Positions 3,093 to 25,233 of a stretch of 25,233 nt of DNA are shown here, piece by piece. A program made the position numbers and the translations under genes. Source of the stretch: a virus; UHGV virus genome UHGV-0079576, one strand, 5' to 3'. Position 1 is the stretch's first letter, and each line of letters starts with the position of its first letter. Below the pieces are notes generated by a model. It ran no database searches. It saw only the letters and a program-made list of their open reading frames with translations, and had not been told where the DNA came from.

Positions 3093-3292
3093 CGGGTCCT
3101 TTCCAGAATCTGAAACACCGGGGGTCTGGGGACGCGCAAAAACGCGCTATTTATGAAAATTTTCAGGGAAAAAGCAGATCCGTTCTTCTTCTGGCTAACC
3201 TGTTGTTTAATAGAATTTTCTTGAAAAAAAGAAAGGATCTGGCAGCGGTGATTTTTCGCTGAAAAAAGCGTTTTGAGATCCTTTCTTCTTTT
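3093..3292. other. cos packaging site: cosQ-like element, predicted cosN nick region, IHF-type AT-rich site and three R-type terminase-binding repeats (cosB)
   Basis: cgggtcctttcc (3093-3104) matches lambda cosQ; CGCTATTTATGAAAATTTTC (3145-3164) is identical to the lambda segment just right of cosN; GATCC(G/T)TTCTTCT occurs at 3177-3192 (direct), 3225-3240 (inverted) and 3277-3292 (direct), mirroring lambda R3/R2/R1; spacing to cosQ places cosN near 3118-3138. Confidence 0.75.
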
Positions 3293-3309
3293 TGTGAGGA
3301 ATATGTGCC

Positions 3310-3858
3310 GTGAAGGTTAACAAAAAGAAACTGGCGGAGATTTTTGAGTGCGATGTCAGAACAATCACTGGCTGGCAAAGTCAGGGGCTGAGAGTTTTGT
3401 CGGGGGGAGGCAAAGGTATCGAGGCCATGTTCAATACTGCAGAAGCCATTGAGTGGTATGCGCAGCGGGAAAAAGATATCGAAAACGAAAAGCTCCGCAA
3501 AGAACTGGAAGATTTGCGTGCGGCTGCAGAATCAGATTTACAACCCGGCACCATTGACTATGAACGCTACCGGCTAACCAAAGCACAGGCTGACGCACAG
3601 GAGCTGAAAAATGCCCGTGAAGAAGGGCTGGTGCTGGAAACGGAATTGTTTACCTTCATTCTGCAACGTGTGGCACAGGAGATTTCGGGGATACTTGTAC
3701 GTGTGCCGCTGACATTACAGCGTAAATATCCGGATATTTCACCGTCACACCTTGATGTGGTGAAAACTGAAATCGCGAAAGCCTCCAATGTTGCAGCTAA
3801 AGCCGGTGAAAACGTGGGCAGGTGGATTGATGATTTCAGACGCACAGAAGGCAGCTAA
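3310..3858 (+). CDS. nu1: Terminase small subunit (lambda Nu1-like)
   Basis: GTG start at 3310; N-terminus [26 protein letters not shown] parallels lambda Nu1 MEVNKKQLADIFGASIRTIQNWQEQG (helix-turn-helix); sits just downstream of cosB. Confidence 0.85.
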
Positions 3859-5746
3859 TGCAGCCGGTGCGATAGCCACAGGGCTTTTATCTCTCAATAT
3901 TCCGGTTCCACTGACGACGGTTCAGTGGGCTGATCAACATTATTATCTGCCGAAAGAATCTTCATACACTCCCGGACAATGGGAAACCCTGCCGTTTCAG
4001 GTTGCCATTATGAACAGCATGGGAAATGACCGGATCCGCACCGTTAATCTGATTAAATCGGCGCGCGTTGGTTACACCAAAATGCTGTTGGGGGTGGAGG
4101 CTTATTTTATTGAGCATAAATCCCGTAACAGTCTGCTTTTTCAGCCAACAGATTCTGCGGCAGAAGATTTCATGAAATCTCATGTTGAGCCAACGATCAG
4201 GGATGTCCCTGCATTGCTGGAGCTGGCTCCATGGTTCGGAAGAAAACATCGTGATAATACACTCACCCTGAAGCGTTTTTCCTCCGGTGTGGGTTTCTGG
4301 TGCCTGGGTGGTGCCGCTGCTAAAAACTACCGTGAAAAATCTGTGGATGTGGTCTGCTATGACGAACTCTCCTCGTTTGAACCGGATGTGGAAAAAGAAG
4401 GTTCGCCGACGCTGCTTGGTGATAAACGCATCGAAGGTTCGGTATGGCCTAAATCCATACGCGGCTCAACGCCAAAAATCAAAGGTTCCTGTCAGATTGA
4501 GAAAGCCGCGAATGAATCTGCGCATTTCATGCGGTTTTATGTCCCTTGCCCTCATTGCGGGGAGGCCCAGTATCTGAAGTTTGGCGATGATGCGACGCCG
4601 TCTGGCCTGAAATGGGAGAAGGGTAAACCGGAAACGGTGTATTACCTGTGTGAACATAATGGCTGTGTGATCCGGCAGTCGGAACTTGACCAGACCGACG
4701 GACGCTGGATTTGTGACAATACCGGGATGTGGACGCGTGATGGCCTGACATTTTACAGCGCCGGTGATGAGGAGATGCCGCCACCGCGCTCAATCTCGTA
4801 CCACATCTGGACGGCGTACAGTCCGTTCACCACCTGGGTGCAGATTGTCTACGACTGGCTGGATGCGCTGAAGGATCCAAACGGTGTTAAGACGTTTATT
4901 AACACCACGCTCGGGGAGCCCTATGAAGAGGCCGTGGCAGAAAAACTGAGCTTTGAGTTGTTGCTGGAAAAAGTCTGCCACTATGGCGCGCAGGTTCCCC
5001 TGCGGGTGGTTTACCTGACCGCCGGGATCGACTCCCAGAAAGATCGCTATGAAATTTATGTCTGGGGCTGGGCTCCCGGCGAAGAAGCCTTTCTGATTGA
5101 TAAGCAAATTATCATGGGGCGACCGGAAGACGAGGACACCCTTAAACGTGTTGATACGGTGATCCGGAAAAAATATCGTCATGCTGACGGTACTGAAATT
5201 TCCATTTCCCGTGTCTGCTGGGATACCGGTGGTATCGACCAGGACATTGTGTATCAGCGTTCCAGGAAACACGGCACTTTTTTTGTGCTTCCCATAAAAG
5301 GGGCATCGGTGTACGGCAAGCCGGTGATCACCATGCCCAAAAAGCGCAACCAGCGTGGTGTGTTTTTGTGTGAGGTGGGCTCCGATACCGTCAAGGAAAT
5401 GCTGTACGCCCGTTTTGCCCTGCCGGTGGTTTCTGCCAGTGAAGCCGCCCCGTATACCTTCCGTTTTCCGGATAACCCCGACATTTTTTCGGAAGAAGAG
5501 GCGCGTCAGATCGTGGCGGAAGAGCTGGTGGAGAAGGTGGTTAATGGCAGGGTGAAACTGCTGTGGGATAAAAAAGGGCGACGCAACGAAGCCCTCGACT
5601 GCCTGGTATATGCCTATGCTGCCCTGCGTATTTCAGTTCAGCGGTGGCAGCTGGATCTTGAAGCACTGGCCCGTGCCAGAAGAGATGAGCAGGACGACGA
5701 TGAGATGAGTCTGGAAGAAATCGCGGCTGCACTGAGTGGAGGATAA
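3830..5746 (+). CDS. A: Terminase large subunit (lambda gpA-like)
   Basis: Strong collinear similarity to lambda gpA (…[27 protein letters not shown]…[14 protein letters not shown]…[13 protein letters not shown]…WDTGGID…); start chosen at ATG 3830 (GGTGG upstream) inside the Nu1 3' end; track ORF begins at 3788. Confidence 0.95.
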
Positions 5747-5959: not shown

Positions 5960-7527
5960 ATGGGGAACTGGTGGATCTTCACGGGCAGCCATTGCGGCAG
6001 AGTATGGGATATTCCGGAGGGGGTACCGGATTTGGCGGGCAGCTTGCGGAATGGTTGCCTGCACCGGAAAGTGCCGACGTGGCGCTCTTACCTTCCATTC
6101 AGCTGGGTAACGCCCGTGCGGATGATCTGGTCCGTAACAACGGTATTGCCGCAAATGCAGTGGAAATTCATAAAGACCATATCGTCGGGCACATGTTTCG
6201 CCTGAGCTACCGGCCCAACTGGCGCTGGCTGGGGATGTCGGAAGCTGATTCGCATGCCTTTATTGAAGATGTGGAGGCGGCGTGGATGGAATATTGCGAT
6301 CCTGTGTTTGGTTCGATGGATGTGGAGGGGCGTCGCTCGTTTACCGAATTTATTCGTGAAGGGGTGGGCGTTCATACGTTTAACGGTGAAATTTTTGTCC
6401 AGCCCGTATGGGATACGGAATCCACGTCATTATTCCGGACGAAATTCAAAACCATCAGCCCGAAACGTGTAAGCACACCCGGTTATGGTACCGGCGATCG
6501 TTTTATGCGTGCCGGGGTGGAAATCAACCGGTACGGAAAAGCACTGGCCTACCATGTTCAGGAAGATGACTGGCCCGGTTACGGTGTCAGCAACTGGACG
6601 CGGATTGCGGCGACGCTGCCCTCCGGGCGACCGGGAATGATCCATGTGTTTCAGCCGCAGGAGGACGGGCAGACGCGCGGGGCCAACCAGTTTTATTCTG
6701 TCATGGAGCGTCTCAAGATGCTCGACACACTGCAGGCCACGCAACTGCAGTCGGCGGTGGTGCGGGCGATGTATGCCGCGACGATTGAATCCACGCTGGA
6801 TTCGGAAAAAGCATTTGAATATATCGCCGGGGTGGGAGATGGCGGTAAAAACCCCCTGAACACCATCATGAAAGGCTACGCGCGTTATTACGCCACCAAT
6901 ACGGTAAAGCTGGGCGGGGTCCGTATTCCGCATCTTTATCCGGGGGATTCACTGAATCTGCAGACAGCGCAGAATGCAGATAATGGTTTCTCTGAACTGG
7001 AAAAGGCGCTGTTACGTTACATCGCTGCCGGACTGGGGGTGTCCTATGAACAGCTTTCCCGTGATTATTCACAGGTCAGTTATTCCAGTGCCAGGGCATC
7101 CGCCAATGAGTCGTGGCGGTATTTTATGGGCAAACGAAAATTTGTGGCCAGCCGGCTGGCATCACAGATGTTTGCTTGCTGGCTGGAGGAAGCTCTTATT
7201 CGCGGTGTGATCCGCCCGCCGAAATCCCGTTTTTCATTCTGGGAGGCCCGTTCCGGATGGTGTCGTGCCGAGTGGATTGGTGCCGGTCGCATGGCGATTG
7301 ATGGCCTTAAGGAAGTGCAGGAATCGGTGATGCGTATTGAAGGTGGTTTAAGCACATACGAGAAGGAGTTGGCCCTGATGGGCGATGACTATCAGGAAAT
7401 ATTCCGCCAGCAACTGCGTGAAAGCCAGGAGCGACAGGCAGCGGGTCTTCCCCGCCCCATCTGGATAAAGGACACGTTTCAGCAGCAGATCCGACAGACA
7501 ACGGGAGAAAAAGGTGATGCGTCGTAA
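5956..7527 (+). CDS. B: Portal protein (lambda gpB-like)
   Basis: 523 aa; GTG start overlapping the W stop; position and size as lambda B between W and C. Confidence 0.85.
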   Translation: MNGELVDLHGQPLRQSMGYSGGGTGFGGQLAEWLPAPESADVALLPSIQLGNARADDLVRNNGIAANAVEIHKDHIVGHMFRLSYRPNWRWLGMSEADSHAFIEDVEAAWMEYCDPVFGSMDVEGRRSFTEFIREGVGVHTFNGEIFVQPVWDTESTSLFRTKFKTISPKRVSTPGYGTGDRFMRAGVEINRYGKALAYHVQEDDWPGYGVSNWTRIAATLPSGRPGMIHVFQPQEDGQTRGANQFYSVMERLKMLDTLQATQLQSAVVRAMYAATIESTLDSEKAFEYIAGVGDGGKNPLNTIMKGYARYYATNTVKLGGVRIPHLYPGDSLNLQTAQNADNGFSELEKALLRYIAAGLGVSYEQLSRDYSQVSYSSARASANESWRYFMGKRKFVASRLASQMFACWLEEALIRGVIRPPKSRFSFWEARSGWCRAEWIGAGRMAIDGLKEVQESVMRIEGGLSTYEKELALMGDDYQEIFRQQLRESQERQAAGLPRPIWIKDTFQQQIRQTTGEKGDAS

Positions 7528-9133
7528 TTTATCGCATATTGCCGCCATGGCATTTAATGAGCCGCTTTTACTGGAACCCGCCTATGCGCGGGTTTTCTTT
7601 TGCGCGCTGGGTAAAGAGATGGGGGCCGGCAGCCTTGCCGTTCCTCAGCAGGCTGTTCAGCTTGATGCTGATGGTATGCAACTGGCGGTGACTGACTATA
7701 TGGCGGGCGGTCAGCGTCCGGCAAAGAGTTACCAGGTGAAGAATGGCATCGCCATTCTGCCGGTGAGCGGCACGCTGGTGCATAAACTGGGTACCCTGCG
7801 GCCTTACTCCGGCATGACTGGCTATGACGGCCTGACGGCCCGCCTTCAGATGGCGGTGAATGATCCGGATGTGCGCGGCATTTTGCTGGATATCGACAGC
7901 CCGGGCGGTCAGGCTGCCGGGGCGTTTGACTGTGCTGACATGATTTACCGCCTGCGGGAACAGAAGCCCGTGTGGGCGCTGTGTAATGACATGGCCTGTT
8001 CAGCCGCCATGTTGCTGGCGGCAGCCTGTACGCGTCGGCTGGTCACGCAGACGGCAAAAATTGGTTCGATTGGTGTGATGATGGCGCACACCAGTTACGA
8101 GAAACAACTGGCACAGGAAGGGGTGGATATCACGCTGATTTACGCCGGGCAGCACAAGGTTGACGGCAACAGTATTCAGGCATTGCCGGCAGGTGTGCGT
8201 GCAGATTTTCAGCGCCGTATTGATGAGGCCCGCCGGATGTTTGTCGACAAAGTGGCGCTTTATACGGGGCTGAGTTCAGAGGCGGTGATGAATACCGAGG
8301 CTGCCGTTTATGACGGTCAGGCAGGCATTGATGCAGGCCTGGCTGATCAACTGATTAATGCTGCAGATGCCGTTGAAGTGATGGTTTCTGCACTGAATGA
8401 CTCTGTTACGAAGGAGAATGCAATGACTGTTAAAAATCTCACCGTTGCTGAAGCGGTGGCCCAGGAAAATCAGCGCGTGATGGGGATCCTGAATTGTCAG
8501 GAGGCGAAAGGGCGCGAGCAACTGGCGCAAATGCTGGCAGGTCAACCTGGAATGACGGTTGAGCAGGCGAAAACGTTGCTGGCTGCTGCGCCGGTTGCCG
8601 GTACTGACAGCACGGGTGATCAGATTATGACGCTGCCGGAAGCAAAGGGGCGTGAGCAACTGGCGCAGATGCTGGCAGGTCAACCGGGGATGACGGTGGC
8701 GCAGGCGAAAGCGTTTCTGGCGGCAGCCCCTGCAGCCGGTGCTGCAGGCACAGGCGATCAGATTATGGCGTTACCAGAAGCAAAAGGGCGTGAACAACTC
8801 GCGCAGGCGCTGGCTGAACAGCCGGGAATGACCGTTGACCAGGCCAAAACGTTACTGGCGGCGGCACCGGTTGCGGGTTCTGCAAGTGTCGGCGAGCAGA
8901 TTATGGCGCTGCCGGAGGCGAAAGGGCGCGAACAACTTGCACAGGCACTGACAGAACAGCCAGGAATGACGGTGGCGCAGGCGAAAACGCTGCTGGCAGC
9001 CGCGCCGGCGGCATCGCAACCGTCACAGGAAACACTTTTTGATCGCTTTATGGCACAGCATGCTGCCAGTGCGGTTTCCGGTGGCGGAACGGCCGGGCGC
9101 GGGGAGGAAGACCTGCTGATGAGTATGCCGTAA
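7517..9133 (+). CDS. C: Prohead protease / minor capsid protein C (S49 peptidase family) with a C-terminal repeat-containing scaffold-like domain
   Basis: ATG at 7517 (GTG at 7514); N-terminal two-thirds is ClpP/S49-like; C-terminal third carries four 46-aa repeats; position as lambda C. Confidence 0.8.
   Translation: MRRNLSHIAAMAFNEPLLLEPAYARVFFCALGKEMGAGSLAVPQQAVQLDADGMQLAVTDYMAGGQRPAKSYQVKNGIAILPVSGTLVHKLGTLRPYSGMTGYDGLTARLQMAVNDPDVRGILLDIDSPGGQAAGAFDCADMIYRLREQKPVWALCNDMACSAAMLLAAACTRRLVTQTAKIGSIGVMMAHTSYEKQLAQEGVDITLIYAGQHKVDGNSIQALPAGVRADFQRRIDEARRMFVDKVALYTGLSSEAVMNTEAAVYDGQAGIDAGLADQLINAADAVEVMVSALNDSVTKENAMTVKNLTVAEAVAQENQRVMGILNCQEAKGREQLAQMLAGQPGMTVEQAKTLLAAAPVAGTDSTGDQIMTLPEAKGREQLAQMLAGQPGMTVAQAKAFLAAAPAAGAAGTGDQIMALPEAKGREQLAQALAEQPGMTVDQAKTLLAAAPVAGSASVGEQIMALPEAKGREQLAQALTEQPGMTVAQAKTLLAAAPAASQPSQETLFDRFMAQHAASAVSGGGTAGRGEEDLLMSMP
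8423..9133 (+). CDS. Nested in-frame scaffold protein (lambda Nu3-like) initiated inside the C gene
   Basis: In-frame ATG at 8423 preceded by AAGGAG (8411-8416); would give a 236-aa product covering the repeat array; analogous to the lambda C/Nu3 in-frame overlap. Confidence 0.4.
   Translation: MTVKNLTVAEAVAQENQRVMGILNCQEAKGREQLAQMLAGQPGMTVEQAKTLLAAAPVAGTDSTGDQIMTLPEAKGREQLAQMLAGQPGMTVAQAKAFLAAAPAAGAAGTGDQIMALPEAKGREQLAQALAEQPGMTVDQAKTLLAAAPVAGSASVGEQIMALPEAKGREQLAQALTEQPGMTVAQAKTLLAAAPAASQPSQETLFDRFMAQHAASAVSGGGTAGRGEEDLLMSMP
8501..9010 (+). repeat. In-frame tandem repeat array, about 3.7 copies of 138 bp (46 aa: EAKGREQLAQ(M/A)LA(G/E)QPGMTV.QAK..LAAAP.AG…QIM.LP)
   Basis: Units begin at 8501, 8639, 8777 and 8915 with high nucleotide identity. 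Confidence 0.85.
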
Positions 9134-13330: not shown

Positions 13331-13687
13331 ATGATTGGTATTGATTCAGCCACCGGCAGATATCTGCACGGTAACGAACATCTGCGCCAGTCCGTCACCG
13401 ATATTTTGTCAACGCCGGTCGGCAGCCGGGTCCTGCTCAGGGAATACGGCAGCAGACTGTTCAGTCTGCTTGATAACCCACAGGATGATTTCACGCGGGT
13501 GAGAATTGTCCGTGAAACGGCAACCGCCCTTGAACGCTGGGAACCCCGCCTGACCCTCCGGCGGGTGGAGGTGACGTGGACAGGAGCAGGGAGCGCCTGG
13601 CTGACGCTTGTCGGGGTGAACAACGAAACTCAGGACATGATTCGACTCGAGGAGATAAAAATTGGCAATGTCTCAGGCAATCATTGA
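13331..13687 (+). CDS. W: Baseplate wedge protein (P2 gpW / gp25-like)
   Basis: 118 aa; …SVTDILSTPVGSRVLLREYGSRLFSLLDNPQ…LERWEPRLTL… parallels P2 W. Confidence 0.8.
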   Translation: MIGIDSATGRYLHGNEHLRQSVTDILSTPVGSRVLLREYGSRLFSLLDNPQDDFTRVRIVRETATALERWEPRLTLRRVEVTWTGAGSAWLTLVGVNNETQDMIRLEEIKIGNVSGNH

Positions 13688-14576
13688 TCTGTCCGCGATA
13701 CCGGTACCGGATGCTGTGGAAGTGCCGGATACCGCAATGCTCGTCTCTCAGATAGTGGCGAAGTATCAGGAGGTGGATACGTTGTTTTCAGCACTGGTGG
13801 AATCTGATCCTGCTTATAAATGGGCGGAGGCACTGGCTTTTCGGGTGGCGCTGATGCGCCAGCAAATAAATGATGCAGTTCGTGCAGTACTGCTTGCCAG
13901 TGCCGGTGGGAACGATCTGGATCAGGTTGGCGCGAATTATCAGGTACAGCGGCTGGTAATTACCCCTGCAGACGACAGCACCATTCCGCCCACGCCGGCG
14001 GTGTATGAAGATGATGACGCCTTTCGCGAACGCATTCAGTTGTCATGGGCACGGCTCAGCACCGCTGGCGCGAAAAATGCGTACCACTATTTTGCACAAA
14101 GTGCTGATCCTGATGTGCTGGATGTGAAAGCCTACGGGCCGGAAACGCATTCGCAGGAAGGGCGGGTTTTTCTTTATGTGTTATCCCGGTCAGGAAATGG
14201 CACCGCATCACAACCCCTGCTGGATAAGGTGGCAGCATCAGTCAGTGATGATGAAACCCGTCCCCTGACGGATTTTGTCAGTGTCCGGGCGGCAGAAATT
14301 ATTCCCTACGACGTGGTGGCGAATATTCATATTCCCTACGGACTGGATGGTGAACTGGTAATGGCAAATGCCCGTAAGGCGCTGCAGTCTTACACTGACA
14401 GTGTCCACAGGATTGGTTCAGTGGCATCCCGTTCCGGCATGGATGGTGCACTGCACCAGACCGGGGTGATTACGGTGAATCTGACCTCTCCTGCCAGTGA
14501 TATCGTTCCTGCGATGGGGCAGGCACCGTGGTGCCGTAAGGTAACACTGAACAAGGTGGAGACAACCGATGAATGA
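13668..14576 (+). CDS. J: Baseplate assembly protein (P2 gpJ-like)
   Basis: Collinear with P2 J (AIIDLSAIPVPDAV…LLASAGGNDLDQVGANYQVQRLVITPADDSTIPPTPAV…); ATG at 13668 (track start is TTG 13662). Confidence 0.9.
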   Translation: MSQAIIDLSAIPVPDAVEVPDTAMLVSQIVAKYQEVDTLFSALVESDPAYKWAEALAFRVALMRQQINDAVRAVLLASAGGNDLDQVGANYQVQRLVITPADDSTIPPTPAVYEDDDAFRERIQLSWARLSTAGAKNAYHYFAQSADPDVLDVKAYGPETHSQEGRVFLYVLSRSGNGTASQPLLDKVAASVSDDETRPLTDFVSVRAAEIIPYDVVANIHIPYGLDGELVMANARKALQSYTDSVHRIGSVASRSGMDGALHQTGVITVNLTSPASDIVPAMGQAPWCRKVTLNKVETTDE

Positions 14577-16980
14577 CGATATCAGGAGCATACTGCCGAT
14601 CAATGCCAGCCGGGCAGAGCGGGTGGTGGACTGTGTCGCCGGAGATATGTTGGCAGACATAGCTGTCTGTCTGATCCGCTATGTGAAAAATCCCGATTTA
14701 TGTCCTGCTGAATTGCTGCCATGGCTGGCCTGGGAAATGGCAGTAGATACCTGGAATGAACACTGGACGGAGGTGGAAAAACGTTCTGCTATAAAGCGTG
14801 CCGCCTATATCCATCGCCACAGAGGGACTAAAGCGGCGCTGATGGCGTCGCTGGCTGACAGTCCGTTCCGGTCGCAGATTGTGGAATGGTATGAGCAGAC
14901 GCCGCCTGGTGATCCCTATACCTTCCGGTTGAATGTGGAGCAGAAGGACTTGCCTGTCCTGATGAGTGACCACCAGGATCTGAAACATGCCGTATTACGT
15001 GCCAAAAATCTGCGTAGCTGGTTCAGTATTCATGTTTATGGGGGCTGCCAGGGGAACGGATACAGCTATGGGTATGTGACAGCGACGGAAAAGATGAAAA
15101 ACAGGATACTGCCGTCAGAAATACAGTTGTCATCAGACAACTTACGACTGGCCCCTGGAGACGTTGTTTCTGTGCAGGTGACGGTGCTACCACTGATTGC
15201 TGATTCCCGCGTATTTTCTGTACAAATCGAAAATGACAGTGTGGCCGCGATAAGTGTTTCTGGTGATGTGGTTACTCTGACAGGGAAACAGTCTGGTCGA
15301 ACTACAGTCGTCGTATCAACGGTAAATGGAGTGGTTGCCAGACTGCCGGTAAGTGTTGTGTCGGTTGTTCAGGTTATTATCCGGGCAGATAACGCCAGCA
15401 TGCCACTGTTTTTTATCGATCCCCAGGATAACGACTTCACTATTGATTATGGTGATGGACTGGACAGCAGAGATTATGTGATTAAGGAGGATGTGGTCAA
15501 AGCTACCCGCACATTGCCGGTCGGAGAAGAAATTACACTGACGATTAAGGGCGCGGAAAGTCTGACATTCTACACCCCGAAGGCAGTAAACAACACCAAT
15601 CCACTCCTGGAGATCATCCGCGTCAGTGGTTCCAGAAAAGACATGTCGTGGTTTGCGAATCTGCAGTGGGCATTGCGAAAAATTCACGCAGGTTCTTTTG
15701 ATAATCTGCCTCACGTACTTTCATTTGAGAATGCCTTTAGGGGGTGTTCGTCTCTTCATGAATTACCTGAAAATCTTTTTGCCAGGTGCGAAGCTGTGGT
15801 GAATTGGTCTGGTGTATTCTATGGGTGCTCTGCCCTGACAGACATCCCACATTTATTTGCGACAAAATCAAGCGCGAACATACTTTCAAAACTGTTTTGT
15901 GGCTGTTCGGAGATCGTCCGGGTCCCGGAGACATTATTCGCTGGTATGGAGAATGCATTGACTTTTGAAAATGCTTTTTCCGGGTGTGAGAAGATGGTTA
16001 ATGCCCCCGCTATTCCAGCTCACAGACTTCAGAATTTTTACAGGGCGTTTTCTGGGTGTTGTAATCTTGCGGAACTCCCGGCGATATTTGGGGAGCAGAA
16101 CGAAAACGACGCATCATCAATTGATTTGTCCTGTGCGTTTTATGGTTGCCGAACACTGACAACCATTCCCGGTGGCTGGGCGGATGTTATCAGAAGCAGA
16201 ATTGCGCATATTGATGGCATATTTAATGAGTGTGACAGTATACGCAGTATACCTGCGCGATTGTTTTCTGGAGCAGATAAGCTTCGTTCTGCTAATAATG
16301 CGTTTTACAACTGCCACAGTATTACCCATGTTGGCGATGGTTTATTCGAGGGATGTCAGAAGCTGACAGGGATAAACGGGGTGTTTTATAACTGCAAATC
16401 ACTGGAAAGCATTGGTGACAGACTTTTTTCCGGGTGTGTGTCAGTTAAATCGGCATCAGAAACGTTTGCTAACTGTAATATTTCGACTGAGATCGGTGAA
16501 GGGACTTTTTCTGGTTGTACATCTCTGATATCAATGAATTCCGTTTTTGCAAATTGCAGAAAACTTATTATGTTACCGGCTGACACATTCAGAGGATGTA
16601 TTTCGCTGAAAGATGTGTCTTATATTTTTTCGAATTGCAATGCATTAACAAAGATTCAGGGGGAACTATTTGCAGACTGCCCACTTACCGTGAGCAGAGG
16701 CATGTTCAGATGGTGTTCGTCATTGATTAAGGTTCCTTGTGGGGTGATTAATCATCGGGAAAGTAGTGTCGACATGACCGAAATGTTTCGTGAGTGCACA
16801 TTATTGGCAATGGACATTAATGATATATTCCCGGATGTGTTTGCTGAAAAATGCAATCTGTCATATTTGTTTTTCCAGTGCAGCAATGTAACAGGCAGTA
16901 AGTCAGAATTTATGGCAAAGTTTCCGGATCCGGTATCTGTTGCTAATGCGTTTAATTATTGTTCGTTACTTACAGACTGA
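14569..16980 (+). CDS. I: Baseplate protein gpI fused to a C-terminal Ig-like (Big_2-type) domain and a long Cys-containing leucine-rich-repeat (BspA-like) domain; 803 aa
   Basis: First ~175 aa collinear with P2 gpI (…NPDLCPAELLPWLAWEMAVDTWNEHWTEVEKRSAIKRAAYIHRHRGTKAA…PPGDPYTFRLNV…); then an Ig-like beta-rich segment (VVSVQVTVLPL…VTLTGKQSGRTTVVVSTVNGVV); from ~15720 about 20 repeats of F-x-G-C-x-x-L-x-x-I/V-P; single uninterrupted ORF. Confidence 0.85.
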   Translation: MNDDIRSILPINASRAERVVDCVAGDMLADIAVCLIRYVKNPDLCPAELLPWLAWEMAVDTWNEHWTEVEKRSAIKRAAYIHRHRGTKAALMASLADSPFRSQIVEWYEQTPPGDPYTFRLNVEQKDLPVLMSDHQDLKHAVLRAKNLRSWFSIHVYGGCQGNGYSYGYVTATEKMKNRILPSEIQLSSDNLRLAPGDVVSVQVTVLPLIADSRVFSVQIENDSVAAISVSGDVVTLTGKQSGRTTVVVSTVNGVVARLPVSVVSVVQVIIRADNASMPLFFIDPQDNDFTIDYGDGLDSRDYVIKEDVVKATRTLPVGEEITLTIKGAESLTFYTPKAVNNTNPLLEIIRVSGSRKDMSWFANLQWALRKIHAGSFDNLPHVLSFENAFRGCSSLHELPENLFARCEAVVNWSGVFYGCSALTDIPHLFATKSSANILSKLFCGCSEIVRVPETLFAGMENALTFENAFSGCEKMVNAPAIPAHRLQNFYRAFSGCCNLAELPAIFGEQNENDASSIDLSCAFYGCRTLTTIPGGWADVIRSRIAHIDGIFNECDSIRSIPARLFSGADKLRSANNAFYNCHSITHVGDGLFEGCQKLTGINGVFYNCKSLESIGDRLFSGCVSVKSASETFANCNISTEIGEGTFSGCTSLISMNSVFANCRKLIMLPADTFRGCISLKDVSYIFSNCNALTKIQGELFADCPLTVSRGMFRWCSSLIKVPCGVINHRESSVDMTEMFRECTLLAMDINDIFPDVFAEKCNLSYLFFQCSNVTGSKSEFMAKFPDPVSVANAFNYCSLLTD

Positions 16981-16992
16981 TAAGGAGAATGT

Positions 16993-18381
16993 ATGCCATC
17001 AGGACTGACGTTAACAATACAAGGAGCAGCCGAAATTGAATCGGCTTATCAGACTGGTCAGGTGGTTACGATCACTCATGTACTGACGGGGGATGGTGGC
17101 GGTAAAACGTTACCATCAACACCTGATGAGATGGCTTCAATGTCGGCATTGTTGGGGCAATTTGGTCAGGAAGTGTTTTCTGAAGGTAAGGTTGAGCAGG
17201 GATTTATCAGTGGTGACATTGTCATTGACTGTAAAAAATATCCCGGAAGAACCTTGCGTGAGCTGGGAATGGTTAGCAGCAGCGGTACGCTGATTGCTTA
17301 TGGTCGTTATCCCGACACGTATTTACCGGCGCAGACTGATTCTGTTATCAAAGAAGTTATACTGACAATGGTTCTGGCGCTTACCCACACCCAGAATGTG
17401 ACGCTGGAGATTGATCCTGAAAGGGCCATTATTACCCAGGAAACAGGTGACAGGCGTTATCTGCAACGAAAAAACAATCTTTCAGATGTGGAAGACAATG
17501 ACGAAGCAATTGATAACCTCGGATTAAAACCCACGGTAGACAAGGCAAAAAATGCCGTTCAGCGTGATGGTGACACCATGAGCGGGGAACTGAAAATCCA
17601 TGGTGTGAATGCGCTGAGGATTTTCAACGAAGCTTTTGGTCTGATTTTTCGTCGTTCGGAAGAGTGCCTGCACCTTATCCCTACCAGTGAAGGTCAGGGT
17701 GAAAATGGCGATATTGGCCCCCTGCGTCCGTTCACCATAAATTTGCGGACGGGTGAGATATCCATGTCGCACAAAGTGTCTGTTGGCGGTGGTTCTCAGG
17801 TGAATGGTGCATTGGGTATCGGCGTTCTGAACGCACTGGGCGGTAACTCAATTGCTCTCGGAGATAACGATACAGGTATAAAACAAAACGGCGACGGCAT
17901 TCTGGATGTTTATGCGAATGGACAGCATGTATTTCGTTTTCAGAATGGGGTGGCAATAGCGTTAAAAAATATTCAGGCCGGAAATGCCAGGAAATTTACG
18001 CTATCCAGCACTAACGAATCTGCGAAAAATGCAACGTTTAATTTATGGGGGCATTCATCCAGACCCGTAGTTGTTGAACTTGGTGATGATTCAGGCTGGC
18101 ATTTTTACAGCCAGAGGAATACAGATAACAGCATCACGTTCGCTGTAAACGGACAGGTAGTGCCATCAAATTATGGAAACTTTGATGCCCGTTACCAGAT
18201 GAAAACAGGGATCGTACAGGATGTGCGACTGGGGAGTGCGGTTGGGATTGGGCGTGGAGGGAATGCACCATCAGGCCATTTGCTGAGCGGTGTTGATGGT
18301 GGCGAAAGCGTGGACTGGGCGAATGCCCGCCCGGTGCAGGTTCTGATTAATGGCGTCTGGCGGAATGTAGCGAGTTTGTAA
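16993..18381 (+). CDS. H: Tail fibre protein (P2 gpH-like N-terminal domain, divergent C-terminal receptor-binding part)
   Basis: 462 aa; AAGGAG RBS; N-terminus …VTITHVLTGDGGGKTLPSTPD…RELGMVSSSGTLIAYGRYP… parallels P2 H (…ITTMAVGDGGGK…RELGLYDDAGTLIAVANMA…). Confidence 0.75.
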   Translation: MPSGLTLTIQGAAEIESAYQTGQVVTITHVLTGDGGGKTLPSTPDEMASMSALLGQFGQEVFSEGKVEQGFISGDIVIDCKKYPGRTLRELGMVSSSGTLIAYGRYPDTYLPAQTDSVIKEVILTMVLALTHTQNVTLEIDPERAIITQETGDRRYLQRKNNLSDVEDNDEAIDNLGLKPTVDKAKNAVQRDGDTMSGELKIHGVNALRIFNEAFGLIFRRSEECLHLIPTSEGQGENGDIGPLRPFTINLRTGEISMSHKVSVGGGSQVNGALGIGVLNALGGNSIALGDNDTGIKQNGDGILDVYANGQHVFRFQNGVAIALKNIQAGNARKFTLSSTNESAKNATFNLWGHSSRPVVVELGDDSGWHFYSQRNTDNSITFAVNGQVVPSNYGNFDARYQMKTGIVQDVRLGSAVGIGRGGNAPSGHLLSGVDGGESVDWANARPVQVLINGVWRNVASL

Positions 18382-18383
18382 TT

Positions 18384-18929
18384 ATGATGCATTTAAAAAA
18401 TATTTCTGTTCAGAACCCTAAAACGATTGAGCAATACCAACTGGCACGACAGCATAAATTTTTATTGTGGCTGTTCTCAGAGGATGGTCAGGAATGGCAC
18501 GAAGCTCAGGAAAAATTTCAGCCAGACACACTCAAAGTGATTTATGTCAAAACGGGAGAAGTCGTCTGGGTCGGGAAAAATATCACATCGGTTTGCCCGG
18601 AAAATAAAAGCGTAATTGAACTGCCGGACATTACCGCGAATCGTCGTATTGCAGCGTCAGGCTACTGGTTTTACCGCAATGATGAATTTGTTTTCGACTA
18701 CAAATTAAAAGCAGAAGACGAACGCGATGCTCTGTTAAAGCAGGTCAGTATCGTGACCAGCGAGTGGGAAAAAGACCTGCAACTTGGGTTAATCAGCGAC
18801 GAAGATAAAGAAAAGCTGAAGGCGTACCGTATTTACGCAAAGAAATTGCAGATGATGGATTTCAGCAATATTTCGGATAAGGCCACTTACAACAATATCG
18901 TCTGGCCTGAGCCACCACAAAATATCTGA
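18384..18929 (+). CDS. Tail fibre assembly protein (Tfa-type chaperone)
   Basis: 181 aa immediately after the fibre gene; C-terminal …YNNIVWPEPPQNI motif typical of Tfa; low GC. Confidence 0.75.
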   Translation: MMHLKNISVQNPKTIEQYQLARQHKFLLWLFSEDGQEWHEAQEKFQPDTLKVIYVKTGEVVWVGKNITSVCPENKSVIELPDITANRRIAASGYWFYRNDEFVFDYKLKAEDERDALLKQVSIVTSEWEKDLQLGLISDEDKEKLKAYRIYAKKLQMMDFSNISDKATYNNIVWPEPPQNI

Positions 18930-18948
18930 AAAAGAAATGAATTATCTG

Positions 18949-18971
18949 ACCGCCTTAAGGGCGGTTTTTTT
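18949..18971 (+). terminator. Intrinsic terminator between fibre assembly gene and sheath gene
   Basis: Stem accgcc(18949-18954)/ggcggt(18960-18965), loop ttaag, then TTTTTTT. Confidence 0.6.
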
Positions 18972-18984
18972 ATGGGAGAAATGT

Positions 18985-20460
18985 ATGTCCGGATTACATG
19001 GTGTTGAAACCATTGAACTGACGACAGGCACGGTTGCCGTGCAGACCATCTCCACGGCTGTAATTGGCCTGGTGGGGACCGCGCCGGACGCCTCCGGTGG
19101 TGTGTGTGCTTCCGGTACAGCCGGTTCGTGGCTGCTGGGAACGGCGCTGGATTTTACGGCGAAACAGGAAGGTAGGGCTGGCAATAATATTTCGGTTGTT
19201 GCTGTCGCTGCCACAAAGCAAAGCGCGCAGACAGCGGCTTCGCTGGAAGGTTCGACCCTGATGATAACGCTGGGTACGGATGAACGCAGCCAGGTTAACA
19301 CCACGGTGGCTTGTGTGATTGAGGTGGTGAATGCACTGGGTGATTCGCCAGTGACAGTGGCGGTCAGTCCACTGAATGCAGAGGGTGCAGAAAATAATGT
19401 GGTGTCGCCGTTCAGTCTGACCTTATCCGGCGGAGAGGATGAGGCGTTTCCGGTTAATACACCGGTGGTGGTGGCGGGGGCGTTAACTCAGGCCGGGAAA
19501 CTGGGCGCAGCCGGGACATTATATCCGGCCCTGCGTGATATTTTTGACCAGACAGGTGCGCTGGTGATTGTGGTGCGTGCGGAAAGCAAAACGAAGGCAA
19601 AGGAAGCAGAACAGCGCGCGGCAGTCATTCGGGCAATGGAAGCCCTGATGGAAAGCAAAGGAAAAACGGGCTACCAGCCGCGCATTCTTATCGCTACTGG
19701 TTACAGTGAGGATGATGGCGTGGCAAAGGCGCTGGAAACGTACGCAGCGAAGTTACGGGCCGTGGCCTATATAGACTCCCCCTCAATGGCAACGCCGCAG
19801 GATGTGGTTCAGCGACGTGCGTCCTTTGGCGGGCGTGTGGAGCTGCTGCGTCCGCGCGTGTCAGTGATGGATGACAGCGGGCAGACGGTATTTCGTCCGT
19901 ATTCAGCACGAGCTGCAGGGCTACGTGCCCGTATTGATTACGAAAAAGGATGGTGGTGGTCCAAGTCAAACCAGGACGTGATGAATATCACTGGACTGGA
20001 GCAGGTTGACACATTTATTCTCGGAGAGCAGAACTGCACAGTAAACCTGCTGAACATGGAAAATATCTCCACCATTATTCGCCACGACGGTTTTAAACAC
20101 TGGGGGAACCGTCTGTGCTCATCCCACAGTCAGTGGCGTTTTGAGCCGGTACGCCGTACAGCAGATGTGATTGAAGACAGCATTCAGGAGGCCATGCTGC
20201 CTTATGTCGATCGGCCGCTTGATCGGGATGTGGCAGAAGACATTCTTGGCAGTATTAATGCCTATATGCGCCAGCTTAAAAATCTGGGCGCGATCCACGG
20301 AGGCAGTGCCTGGCTGAATGATGAACTGAATACAGCAGAAACCCTGGCGGCAGGGCAGTTGTATATTGATTATGACTTTGGGCCGAAGTCACCACTGGAG
20401 CGTCTGACACTGCGGGCGATGATTAACAATAAACTGGCGCTGGAGGAGCTGACAGTATGA
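18985..20460 (+). CDS. FI: Tail sheath protein (P2 FI-like)
   Basis: ATG at 18985 with GGGAG 6 nt upstream, downstream of the terminator; collinear with P2 FI (MSGLHGVETIEL…AVIGLVGTA…RARIDYEKGWW…TIIRHDGFKHWGNR…AGQLYIDYDFGPKSPLERLTLR); track start 18937 lies upstream of the terminator. Confidence 0.95.
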   Translation: MSGLHGVETIELTTGTVAVQTISTAVIGLVGTAPDASGGVCASGTAGSWLLGTALDFTAKQEGRAGNNISVVAVAATKQSAQTAASLEGSTLMITLGTDERSQVNTTVACVIEVVNALGDSPVTVAVSPLNAEGAENNVVSPFSLTLSGGEDEAFPVNTPVVVAGALTQAGKLGAAGTLYPALRDIFDQTGALVIVVRAESKTKAKEAEQRAAVIRAMEALMESKGKTGYQPRILIATGYSEDDGVAKALETYAAKLRAVAYIDSPSMATPQDVVQRRASFGGRVELLRPRVSVMDDSGQTVFRPYSARAAGLRARIDYEKGWWWSKSNQDVMNITGLEQVDTFILGEQNCTVNLLNMENISTIIRHDGFKHWGNRLCSSHSQWRFEPVRRTADVIEDSIQEAMLPYVDRPLDRDVAEDILGSINAYMRQLKNLGAIHGGSAWLNDELNTAETLAAGQLYIDYDFGPKSPLERLTLRAMINNKLALEELTV

Positions 20461-24908: not shown

Positions 24909-25233
24909 ATGGCTGTATTAATTTCAGGTGTGCTGACTGATGGCGCGGGACTCCCCATGTCCGGATACCATATTCTTCTGAAAGCCAGGCAGAATACATC
25001 TGCAGTGGTCATGAGAACGGTGGCTGCAGTGGTGACAGGGGCGGCAGGAGAATATGCCTTTGAGGCTCAGACCGGAAAATATGATGTATATCTTCGGTCG
25101 TGCATTGAAAGAGAATATTGTGTCGGTGACATTTCAGTTTATGAAGACTCCAGACCCGGCACGCTGAACGACTTCCTTACCGCCCTTGATGAAGACGACC
25201 TGAAGCCGGATGTGGTGAAGCGTTTTGAGGAAA
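24909..25233 (+). CDS. stf: Side tail fibre protein, N-terminal part only (lambda Stf / prophage tail-fibre N-terminal domain); runs off the window
   Basis: MAVLISGVLTDGAGLPMSGYHILLKARQNTSAVVM…YDVYL…ISVYEDSRPGTLNDFLTALDEDDLKPDVVKRFE parallels lambda Stf MAVKISGVLKDGTGKPVQNCTIQLKA…YSVIL…ITVYEDSQPGTLNDFL…EDDARPE. Confidence 0.75.
   Translation, partial: MAVLISGVLTDGAGLPMSGYHILLKARQNTSAVVMRTVAAVVTGAAGEYAFEAQTGKYDVYLRSCIEREYCVGDISVYEDSRPGTLNDFLTALDEDDLKPDVVKRFEE

Follow-up and report, generated by a model that had tools for sequence, protein, structure and literature searches.

In P2-like and related temperate myophages, recognition of the host is usually credited to the gpH-type fibre alone, and to our knowledge the role of leucine-rich-repeat (LRR) folds in phage adsorption is almost unexplored. 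The baseplate wedge is a heterotrimer of the (gpJ)2-gpI type, with one BW3 protein for each (BW2)2 pair (PMC10457771; PMC10811340), and gpI-type proteins, among them BW3, T4 gp7 and pyocin PA0619, sit at the baseplate periphery (PMC10811340; PMC10457771), with gpI/BW3 identified as the attachment site of receptor-binding proteins (RBPs) (PMC10811340). Here we describe an 803-residue protein encoded at positions 14569 to 16980 of the virus genome UHGV-0079576 (25,233 nucleotides, the whole of which is called the window below), in which a gpI core continues in a single frame into an Ig-like domain, a second beta-sandwich and a long BspA-type LRR solenoid. The extension is optional in its lineage, diverges faster than the core and occurs on a second type of wedge protein. 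We read the product as an "evolved" wedge protein with an optional, exchangeable and monomeric module predicted to adhere to the bacterial surface, and assign this reading a probability of roughly 55%.

Comparison with described systems

The protein resembles P2 gpI, pyocin R2 Tri2 (PA0619) and T4 gp7 in its N-terminal 175 residues, in its synteny after gpW and gpJ and, by analogy, in its position at the rim. Whereas the P2-type and pyocin gpI proteins measure about 176–196 residues, it has 628 more, which form unrelated binding folds. T4 gp7 is long as well (1032 residues), its extra domains holding other baseplate proteins, and none of the searches made linked it to the extension. The same set of domains is found in gp35 ("tail protein I") of the Klebsiella phage ST16-OXA48phi5.4 (Reipivirus), which combines Tail_P2_I, Big_2, a beta-sandwich and LRR_5/DUF285 repeats and shares about 39% identity with the window protein over 93% of the query. 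It differs, however, in its length (1008 residues, with more coils), in a conserved DYxDIPxxW tail and in the 70-residue open reading frame (ORF) that follows it, and it belongs to a true P2-like genome, whereas the window prophage joins a lambda-like head to a P2-like tail.

A functional parallel may lie in the "evolved" baseplate and tail proteins of siphophages (evoDit, evolved Tal and evolved MTP, the major tail protein), which bear carbohydrate-binding modules that aid adsorption beside the main RBP (PMC9128512; PMC7291167). In these proteins, as in the window protein, a conserved baseplate block is decorated with optional, exchangeable binding modules, but they belong to siphophages and their core is a Dit hexamer rather than a wedge BW3 protein. 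Their modules have carbohydrate-binding folds, not that of an LRR solenoid, and are inserted within the core fold rather than grafted at the C-terminus. The repeats themselves recall the BspA-type LRR/PARCEL (DUF285, TIGR02167) proteins, 4gt6 for example, which share bipartite repeats of about 26–27 residues on an F-x-x-C-x-x-L scaffold; PARCEL repeats are prone to horizontal gene transfer and variable at their hydrophilic positions (PMC2996958). Those proteins are secreted or lipid-anchored on the bacterial surface, whereas the window protein has no signal sequence and would be tethered to the baseplate through its gpI core. Finally, peripheral-baseplate proteins of the DUF7941 type in phage Goslar (Chimalliviridae) carry LRR and beta-helix domains for which host recognition was proposed, speculatively, by the authors. 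There too predicted LRR-type domains are joined to the baseplate periphery by an N-terminal module, but the DUF7941 anchor is unrelated, Goslar is a jumbo phage, and the likeness is one of description rather than of homology comparison.

Domain architecture of the 803-residue protein

The ORF and its parts are as follows:

14569..16980, + strand: whole ORF from an ATG start, 803 residues, comprising gpI core, Ig-like domain, beta-sandwich and LRR solenoid
14569..15093, + strand: gpI core, residues 1–175, predicted baseplate wedge anchor (equivalent of BW3, the T4 gp7 N-terminal part and pyocin Tri2 PA0619)
15094..15363, + strand: Big_2-type Ig-like domain, residues 176–265
15364..15648, + strand: second small beta-sandwich or LRR N-terminal cap, residues 266–360, with an FTIDYGDG motif
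15649..16977, + strand: BspA-type LRR solenoid, residues 361–803 (about 440 residues), delimited from LRR_5, the repeat stack, AlphaFold2 confidence and Foldseek
16423–16428, + strand: T6 homopolymer within the LRR coding region

By its profile matches the N-terminal part (residues 1–175) is a bona fide, ordinary member of the P2-type gpI family. Pfam Tail_P2_I (PF09684) covers residues 9–149 at E 1e-33 (116.6 bits against a cutoff of 20.6), the NCBIfam equivalog tail_P2_I (TIGR01634) scores 93.6 bits against 30.05, and pyocin R2 Tri2/PA0619 (6u5b_0) is matched both by the family profile (E 2.6e-26) and by Foldseek (E 6.5e-5). In the AlphaFold2 model, which was built from 32 homologues, the predicted local distance difference test (pLDDT) lies between 45 and 75 in this core, as expected because a wedge protein was modelled without its partners, and rises above 90 from about residue 180 through the C-terminus, that is, over the whole extension.

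The order of domains, gpI followed by an Ig-like segment and a BspA-type LRR region, had been read correctly in the original prediction, which was made from the sequence without database searches. Of the two profile hits that it expected in the extension, LRR_5 is present above threshold; the Big_2 profile scores only 16.1 bits on the window sequence alone, below its gathering threshold of 22.8, although residues 176–265 do adopt an Ig-like beta-sandwich fold homologous to known Big_2 domains. Residues 266–360 form a further confident beta-sandwich (pLDDT about 93), and their FTIDYGDG motif is conserved in the family, with D296 invariant and G297 conserved at 90% or more.

The LRR_5 match spans residues 564–705 and reaches 37.8 bits with the full protein and 40.6 bits with the extension alone, against a cutoff of 27.7 (E 2.9e-10). 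Stacking of the F-x-x-C anchors gives a longer array of about 15.5 coils of about 27 residues each, from residue 388 to residue 803. Two similar half-repeats, one of 14 residues (naFxgCxsLxxiPx) and one of 13 (xLFxgCxxlxsax), make up each coil, which is why 22 anchors, all between residues 390 and 798, correspond to only about 15.5 coils. It had been proposed that about 20 repeats start near position 15720; the start is matched by the first coil (residue 388, nucleotide 15730), but the count becomes about 15.5 bipartite coils. Comparison with known structures agrees with this assignment: Foldseek relates the LRR to 4gt6 at E 4.5e-5, and the family profile matches solved LRR proteins, 4gt6, 4fs7 and TpLRR among them, at E 1e-24 to 1e-11. 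The nearest solved match, 4gt6, is a surface protein of a gut commensal bacterium. Dozens of phage proteins tagged "BspA" or "26-residue repeat" also resemble the solenoid in Foldseek. The window protein itself falls short of the PARCEL thresholds (TIGR02167 at 13.8 bits against 30, and no DUF285 match at E<=1), but its homologues P0023 (29.9 bits) and P0044 (42.5 bits) do pass PARCEL or DUF285-type thresholds.

Virion assembly occurs in the reducing cytoplasm. The LRR part holds 27 of the protein's 31 cysteines, and 22 of those 27 stand in the scaffold motif F-x-x-C-x-x-L; five of the cysteines in this motif are either invariant in the family or conserved at 90% or more. The cysteine-rich repeats, which had been taken as a sign of an extracellular surface, do not bear that interpretation, and from their placement in the motif we infer that the cysteines are residues of the repeat core rather than part of a disulfide-rich extracellular surface. 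At the DNA level no significant repeats were found in 14569–18929, where the protein repeats have diverged and only the T6 run remains. A diversity-generating retroelement (DGR) target or contingency locus was also considered and rejected, there being neither significant DNA repeats nor a DGR-like template in 14569–18929.

The frame is intact in independent assemblies. Full-length copies at 99.6% identity, each in a single frame and annotated "phage tail protein I", are present in the complete genomes of E. coli M8, RSHH22 and SK6988, all of them from mice; the frame is likewise intact in a 99%-identical IMG/VR contig (L010), and the exact 803-residue protein is recorded from six contigs. The fusion of gpI with its extension, which the original prediction had asked to see in independent assemblies, therefore holds, and no frameshift separates the two parts in these four sequences. 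Broken copies also exist. In a second 99%-identical IMG/VR contig (L009, IMGVR_UViG_2913112809_000003; 3206–5086) the T6 run is T7 and the protein ends at residue 626; either the extra T is a sequencing error in a homopolymer, or this copy of the module has been knocked out naturally. Two viral contigs from metagenomes, L025 (3046–6316) and L026, have a homologous gene broken inside its Big_2 domain: in L025 a 263-residue ORF stops in mid-domain, and beyond its stop codon come a GGAGG Shine-Dalgarno-like sequence and the ATG of an 811-residue ORF that resumes the domain. The anchor part in these two contigs matched neither Tail_P2_I nor Wedge1.

The extension as an optional, fast-diverging module

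The prophage of strain RM9088 belongs to the same lineage, and its gpI is only 196 residues long. DNA identity between the two prophages stops at window position 15095, at the last base of the core, and resumes at 17023 in the fibre gene, so that the extension is a 1.93-kb indel (window 15096–17022) relative to the short-gpI prophage. The short and long proteins are collinear through an invariant ATEK175 and then part, and in the long forms the sequence stays in register past this point, with neither a spacer nor a new start codon in between. The comparison of gpI lengths in related prophages, proposed earlier as a check, thus gives 196 against 803 residues with divergence exactly past residue 175. 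In the 90% cluster of the window protein the representative and all other listed members are 196 residues long, on hundreds of contigs.

Among E. coli relatives the core is 85–92% identical while the LRR falls to about 40%. In strain 401651, for example, the gpI has 861 residues with a core about 92% identical, and its LRR, at about 40%, is undetectable at the DNA level; the adjoining fibre gene has 85.7% DNA identity. Amino acid identity to the nearest relative is at most 65%, a distance that would saturate synonymous divergence (dS).

The cassette on a second wedge anchor

In an E217-like enterobacterial prophage (L004) the gene directly after Baseplate_J encodes a 1147-residue protein whose N-terminal domain is Phage_Wedge1/DUF2612, not Tail_P2_I. 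Its residues 300–1146 nevertheless align with residues 192–1003 of a Klebsiella gpI (39% identity, 852 columns), in a match that opens precisely where Big_2 begins and leaves out the anchors. Two more Wedge1-anchored versions were found (L046 and L056). Since the cassette aligns from end to end while the anchors are unalignable, the Ig-sandwich-LRR unit is self-contained and has been attached to no fewer than two different wedge proteins, each time at the equivalent structural position. The divergence between core and LRR, the boundary at residue 175 and the two anchor families together mark a mosaic, fast-evolving module in the host-range region.

In most of these loci a conserved ORF of about 70 residues follows the LRR-bearing wedge gene (L005 10003–10215, L004 11448–11672 and most of L007–L057), with 48% identity between the P2-like Klebsiella phage and the E217-like prophage. 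Its product, which has no Pfam match, could be a chaperone or adaptor of the cassette; the window was searched for this ORF and lacks it. The fibre genes that come after the cassette are unrelated between the Klebsiella P2-like and E217-like lineages.

LRR modules homologous to that of the window also occur in "tail protein" genes adjoining the fibre genes of Phapecoctavirus phages and in jumbo phages. Escherichia phage ukendt (Phapecoctavirus; L006 4021–6693) encodes an 890-residue "tail protein" whose C-terminal region is about 29% identical to the window LRR, in a gene that adjoins the tail fibre and colanic-acid-degradation genes of phAPEC8-like lytic phages, and there are similar LRR matches in Bacillus phage G gp353 and in Klebsiella and Erwinia jumbo phages.

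A lower GC content of the extension had been offered as a sign of horizontal acquisition. The hand counts behind this were exact (63.3% at 14581–14640 and 36.7% at 16501–16560), and the drop is real at the scale of domains, from 53.0% in the gpI core to 42.8% in the LRR. It is not specific, however: the low-GC block is the entire 15.1–18.9 kb cassette rather than the extension alone, with the fibre gene at 47.9% and the assembly gene at 42.5%, and in other hosts the step between core and LRR is small or absent (about 5 points in strain 401651 and the Klebsiella phage, nil in the low-GC E217-like prophage). Because it extends over the fibre and assembly genes and varies by host, the step marks mosaicism of the host-range cassette and is not a signature of the LRR. 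That the extension is a horizontally exchanged module is borne out instead by the clean 1.93-kb indel after residue 175 and by the same cassette on a different wedge anchor.

Distribution and prior description

The fusion is rare in E. coli but not rare overall. An extension detectable at the DNA level is present in 4 of 5426 complete E. coli genomes (M8, RSHH22, SK6988 and 401651), and a megablast search with the ORF found no match among 50,697 phage records; homologues emerge at the protein level. Here about 50 cluster representatives share the architecture, with lengths of 546–1049 residues and the uniform name "phage tail protein I", from E. coli, E. albertii, Salmonella, Klebsiella and Trabulsiella hosts. 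Two Klebsiella clusters with the fusion have 1551 and 877 members, and 14 deposited Klebsiella phage records carry it, ST16-OXA48phi5.4 (Peduoviridae) with its gp35 included. PHROG 9915, listed as of "unknown function", matches the window protein at E 1e-244. A motif scan found the fusion in at least 49 IMG/VR contigs, mostly of 37–40 kb, and in at least two species representatives, these counts being lower bounds given the very strict motif used for both scans.

The original prediction did not recognise the fusion as a described architecture. In the literature searched we found no description of a gpI-Ig-LRR fusion, nor any experiment on its binding to a receptor or its effect on adsorption or host range, so the claim stands as far as papers go, but the Klebsiella clusters, the IMG/VR contigs, ST16-OXA48phi5.4 gp35 and PHROG 9915 show it to be abundant in databases. 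A fusion both common and already characterised in P2-like phages had been named there as a refutation; this one is common and catalogued, yet uncharacterised, a baseplate protein decorated with a predicted accessory binding module.

Proposed function and alternative explanations

LRR and Big_2 folds are classical binding scaffolds. If the gpI core behaves as its relatives do, its 175 residues together with two copies of gpJ would build each of six wedges and so form the baseplate rim. Where the short gpI ends, a self-contained cassette has been grafted on. The Big_2 Ig-like domain and second beta-sandwich may then serve as a stalk and the LRR solenoid of about 440 residues as the binding surface. 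As gpI would lie at the rim with one copy per heterotrimer, a position and stoichiometry that we take by analogy from the literature (PMC10811340; PMC10457771), a C-terminal graft would be displayed six times, as six monomeric copies per virion at the baseplate periphery beside six trimeric fibres. There the module may play an accessory part in adhesion, probably of a reversible kind, to some component of the bacterial surface, by which adsorption would become more efficient or host range would change, and it would be swapped between phages like other host-range determinants. We infer the binding function, the ligand and the exposure on the virion from the optional presence, fast divergence and portability of the module, its binding folds and its expected rim position, for which an accessory adhesion device is the best explanation; peripheral accessory binding is the most reasonable role because gpI is the rim protein where RBPs attach (PMC10811340).

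Several points weigh against this interpretation. The predicted monomeric display would differ from that of classical myophage RBPs, which are trimeric. The AlphaFold2 model is of a single chain, so that exposure and orientation on the baseplate are themselves predictions, and its confidence in the gpI core is low. Relaxed constraint on a decorative domain, rather than selection for binding, could partly explain the fast divergence. Furthermore, the module is dispensable, since the L009 copy is frameshifted and most members of the lineage are without it, which fits an accessory role but equally a marginal usefulness.

Adherence to the animal host or its environment is one alternative, in which the ligand would be mucin glycans, extracellular matrix or some other non-bacterial component of the gut and the module would keep virions where hosts are dense without recognising a bacterial receptor, as already proposed for Ig-like capsid decorations. 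The mouse-gut origin of E. coli with the exact allele, the Big_2 Ig-like domains on many phage structural proteins (lambda gpV included) and the gut commensal source of 4gt6 are in keeping with it, as is the binding of host matrix proteins by BspA-family proteins of oral and gut bacteria. We nonetheless think it unlikely, as LRR proteins of this kind are also present in phages from marine, soil and plant-pathogen settings, none of them mucosal (marine cyanophages, Bacillus phage G, and jumbo phages of Erwinia and Vibrio), and the module is placed in a baseplate rim protein within a host-range cassette, not on capsid or tube, and travels with a gene of the fibre region (the 70-residue ORF). A structural or adaptor role would instead make the extension a docking platform, holster or regulator of the fibre, or a shield that modulates baseplate triggering, with no ligand to bind. 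Such a role would suit the identification of gpI/BW3 as the fibre attachment site (PMC10811340), the contrast between T4 gp7 (1032 residues, with peripheral domains) and XM1 gp17 (242 residues) (PMC10457771), and the order of cassette, conserved 70-residue ORF and fibre in the Klebsiella and E217-like loci. However, prophages with short and with long gpI have homologous fibre N-termini (78–86% nucleotide identity), so that fibre attachment needs no extension; the downstream fibres are not homologous between the two cassette-bearing lineages, and an LRR identity of about 40% beside a conserved fibre is hard to square with a co-evolving docking interface. This role accordingly seems improbable to us.

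Far less probable still, to the point of being negligible, is that gpI and a downstream gene were joined by an error, whether of assembly or a frameshift, or that the ORF is a non-functional remnant. The T6-to-T7 frameshift in L009 and the genes split inside Big_2 in L025 and L026 are what one would expect of decay, but the architecture recurs in one ORF at no fewer than 40 distinct loci in several genera, AlphaFold2 confidence is very high across the extension, and neither a separate start codon nor a spacer follows ATEK175, with the register kept in all long forms. Because of the intact copies in M8, RSHH22, SK6988 and L010, an artefact is excluded for the 803-residue allele, and together with the recurrent architecture and in-register junction they refute a pseudogene. 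A bolder form of the adhesion hypothesis would make the Ig-sandwich-LRR unit a new class of monomeric RBP in a trigger-transmitting wedge protein, where ligand binding by gpI itself and not by the trimeric fibre helps to fire the tail, and which could be plugged onto any myophage wedge anchor, or would alternatively give it a non-bacterial ligand of the animal mucosa; we consider this doubtful.

Should the accessory adhesion reading be right, the LRR module in a rim protein would be a second, overlooked determinant of host range or adhesion, widespread and exchangeable, with copies in thousands of prophage sequences from Klebsiella and in some prophages of E. coli and Salmonella. This would be relevant to predicting the host range of prophages and tailocins and to engineering pyocin- or P2-type particles, where the junction after residue 175, and the fact that two unrelated anchors accept the cassette, point to a natural site for grafting. 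Ready comparisons for experiments exist in nature, since prophages that are otherwise near-identical carry short, long or frameshifted alleles.

Neighbouring genes and other features of the prophage

The genes around the 803-residue ORF keep the gpV-gpW-gpJ-gpI-fibre-assembly protein order of P2:

13331–13687: GPW_gp25, upstream of Baseplate_J
13662..14576, + strand: Baseplate_J wedge protein (P2 gpJ/T4 gp6-like); Pfam Baseplate_J E 4.5e-23; phrog_4226 and phrog_6
16993..18381, + strand: canonical tail-collar fibre (P2 gpH-like), 462 residues; Phage_tail_fib N-terminal domain E 3.6e-18; phrog_6859
18384..18929, + strand: tail fibre assembly chaperone; Caudo_TAP E 8e-24; phrog_136

The start of the ORF overlaps the 3' end of the Baseplate_J gene, and the fibre gene begins 12 nucleotides after its stop. 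A second tail-fibre locus begins after the gene D homologue (window 24909–25233) and runs off the end of the window; in M8 it encodes a "prophage tail fiber N-terminal domain" protein and an assembly protein. The LRR module thus accompanies two fibre loci in this prophage. The extension as a dock for this second locus was considered and rejected: the locus is present with a short gpI in RM9088 and absent with a long gpI in 401651, and is therefore independent of the extension.

M8 carries an IS66-family element (tnpA/tnpB/tnpC) between the fibre assembly and sheath genes (L001 20430–23134), which the window lacks at 18929–18990, the prophages being otherwise 99.4–99.8% identical, and in RM9088 a different IS66-like element interrupts the second fibre gene. 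The chromosomal sites of relatives also differ, adjoining potB/pepT in M8 and ydfJ in strain 401651. The prophage as a whole is a hybrid of a lambda-like head and packaging region (gpW-like joining protein, portal, S49 protease, decoration protein, major capsid and FI) with a P2-like contractile tail. Within the head region, the gene for a 539-residue protein of the S49 peptidase/scaffold type (7514–9133) contains a 138-nucleotide tandem repeat of 3.7 copies with 78% matches (window 8500–9008), so that this part of the head maturation protease/scaffold region encodes protein repeats of 46 residues.

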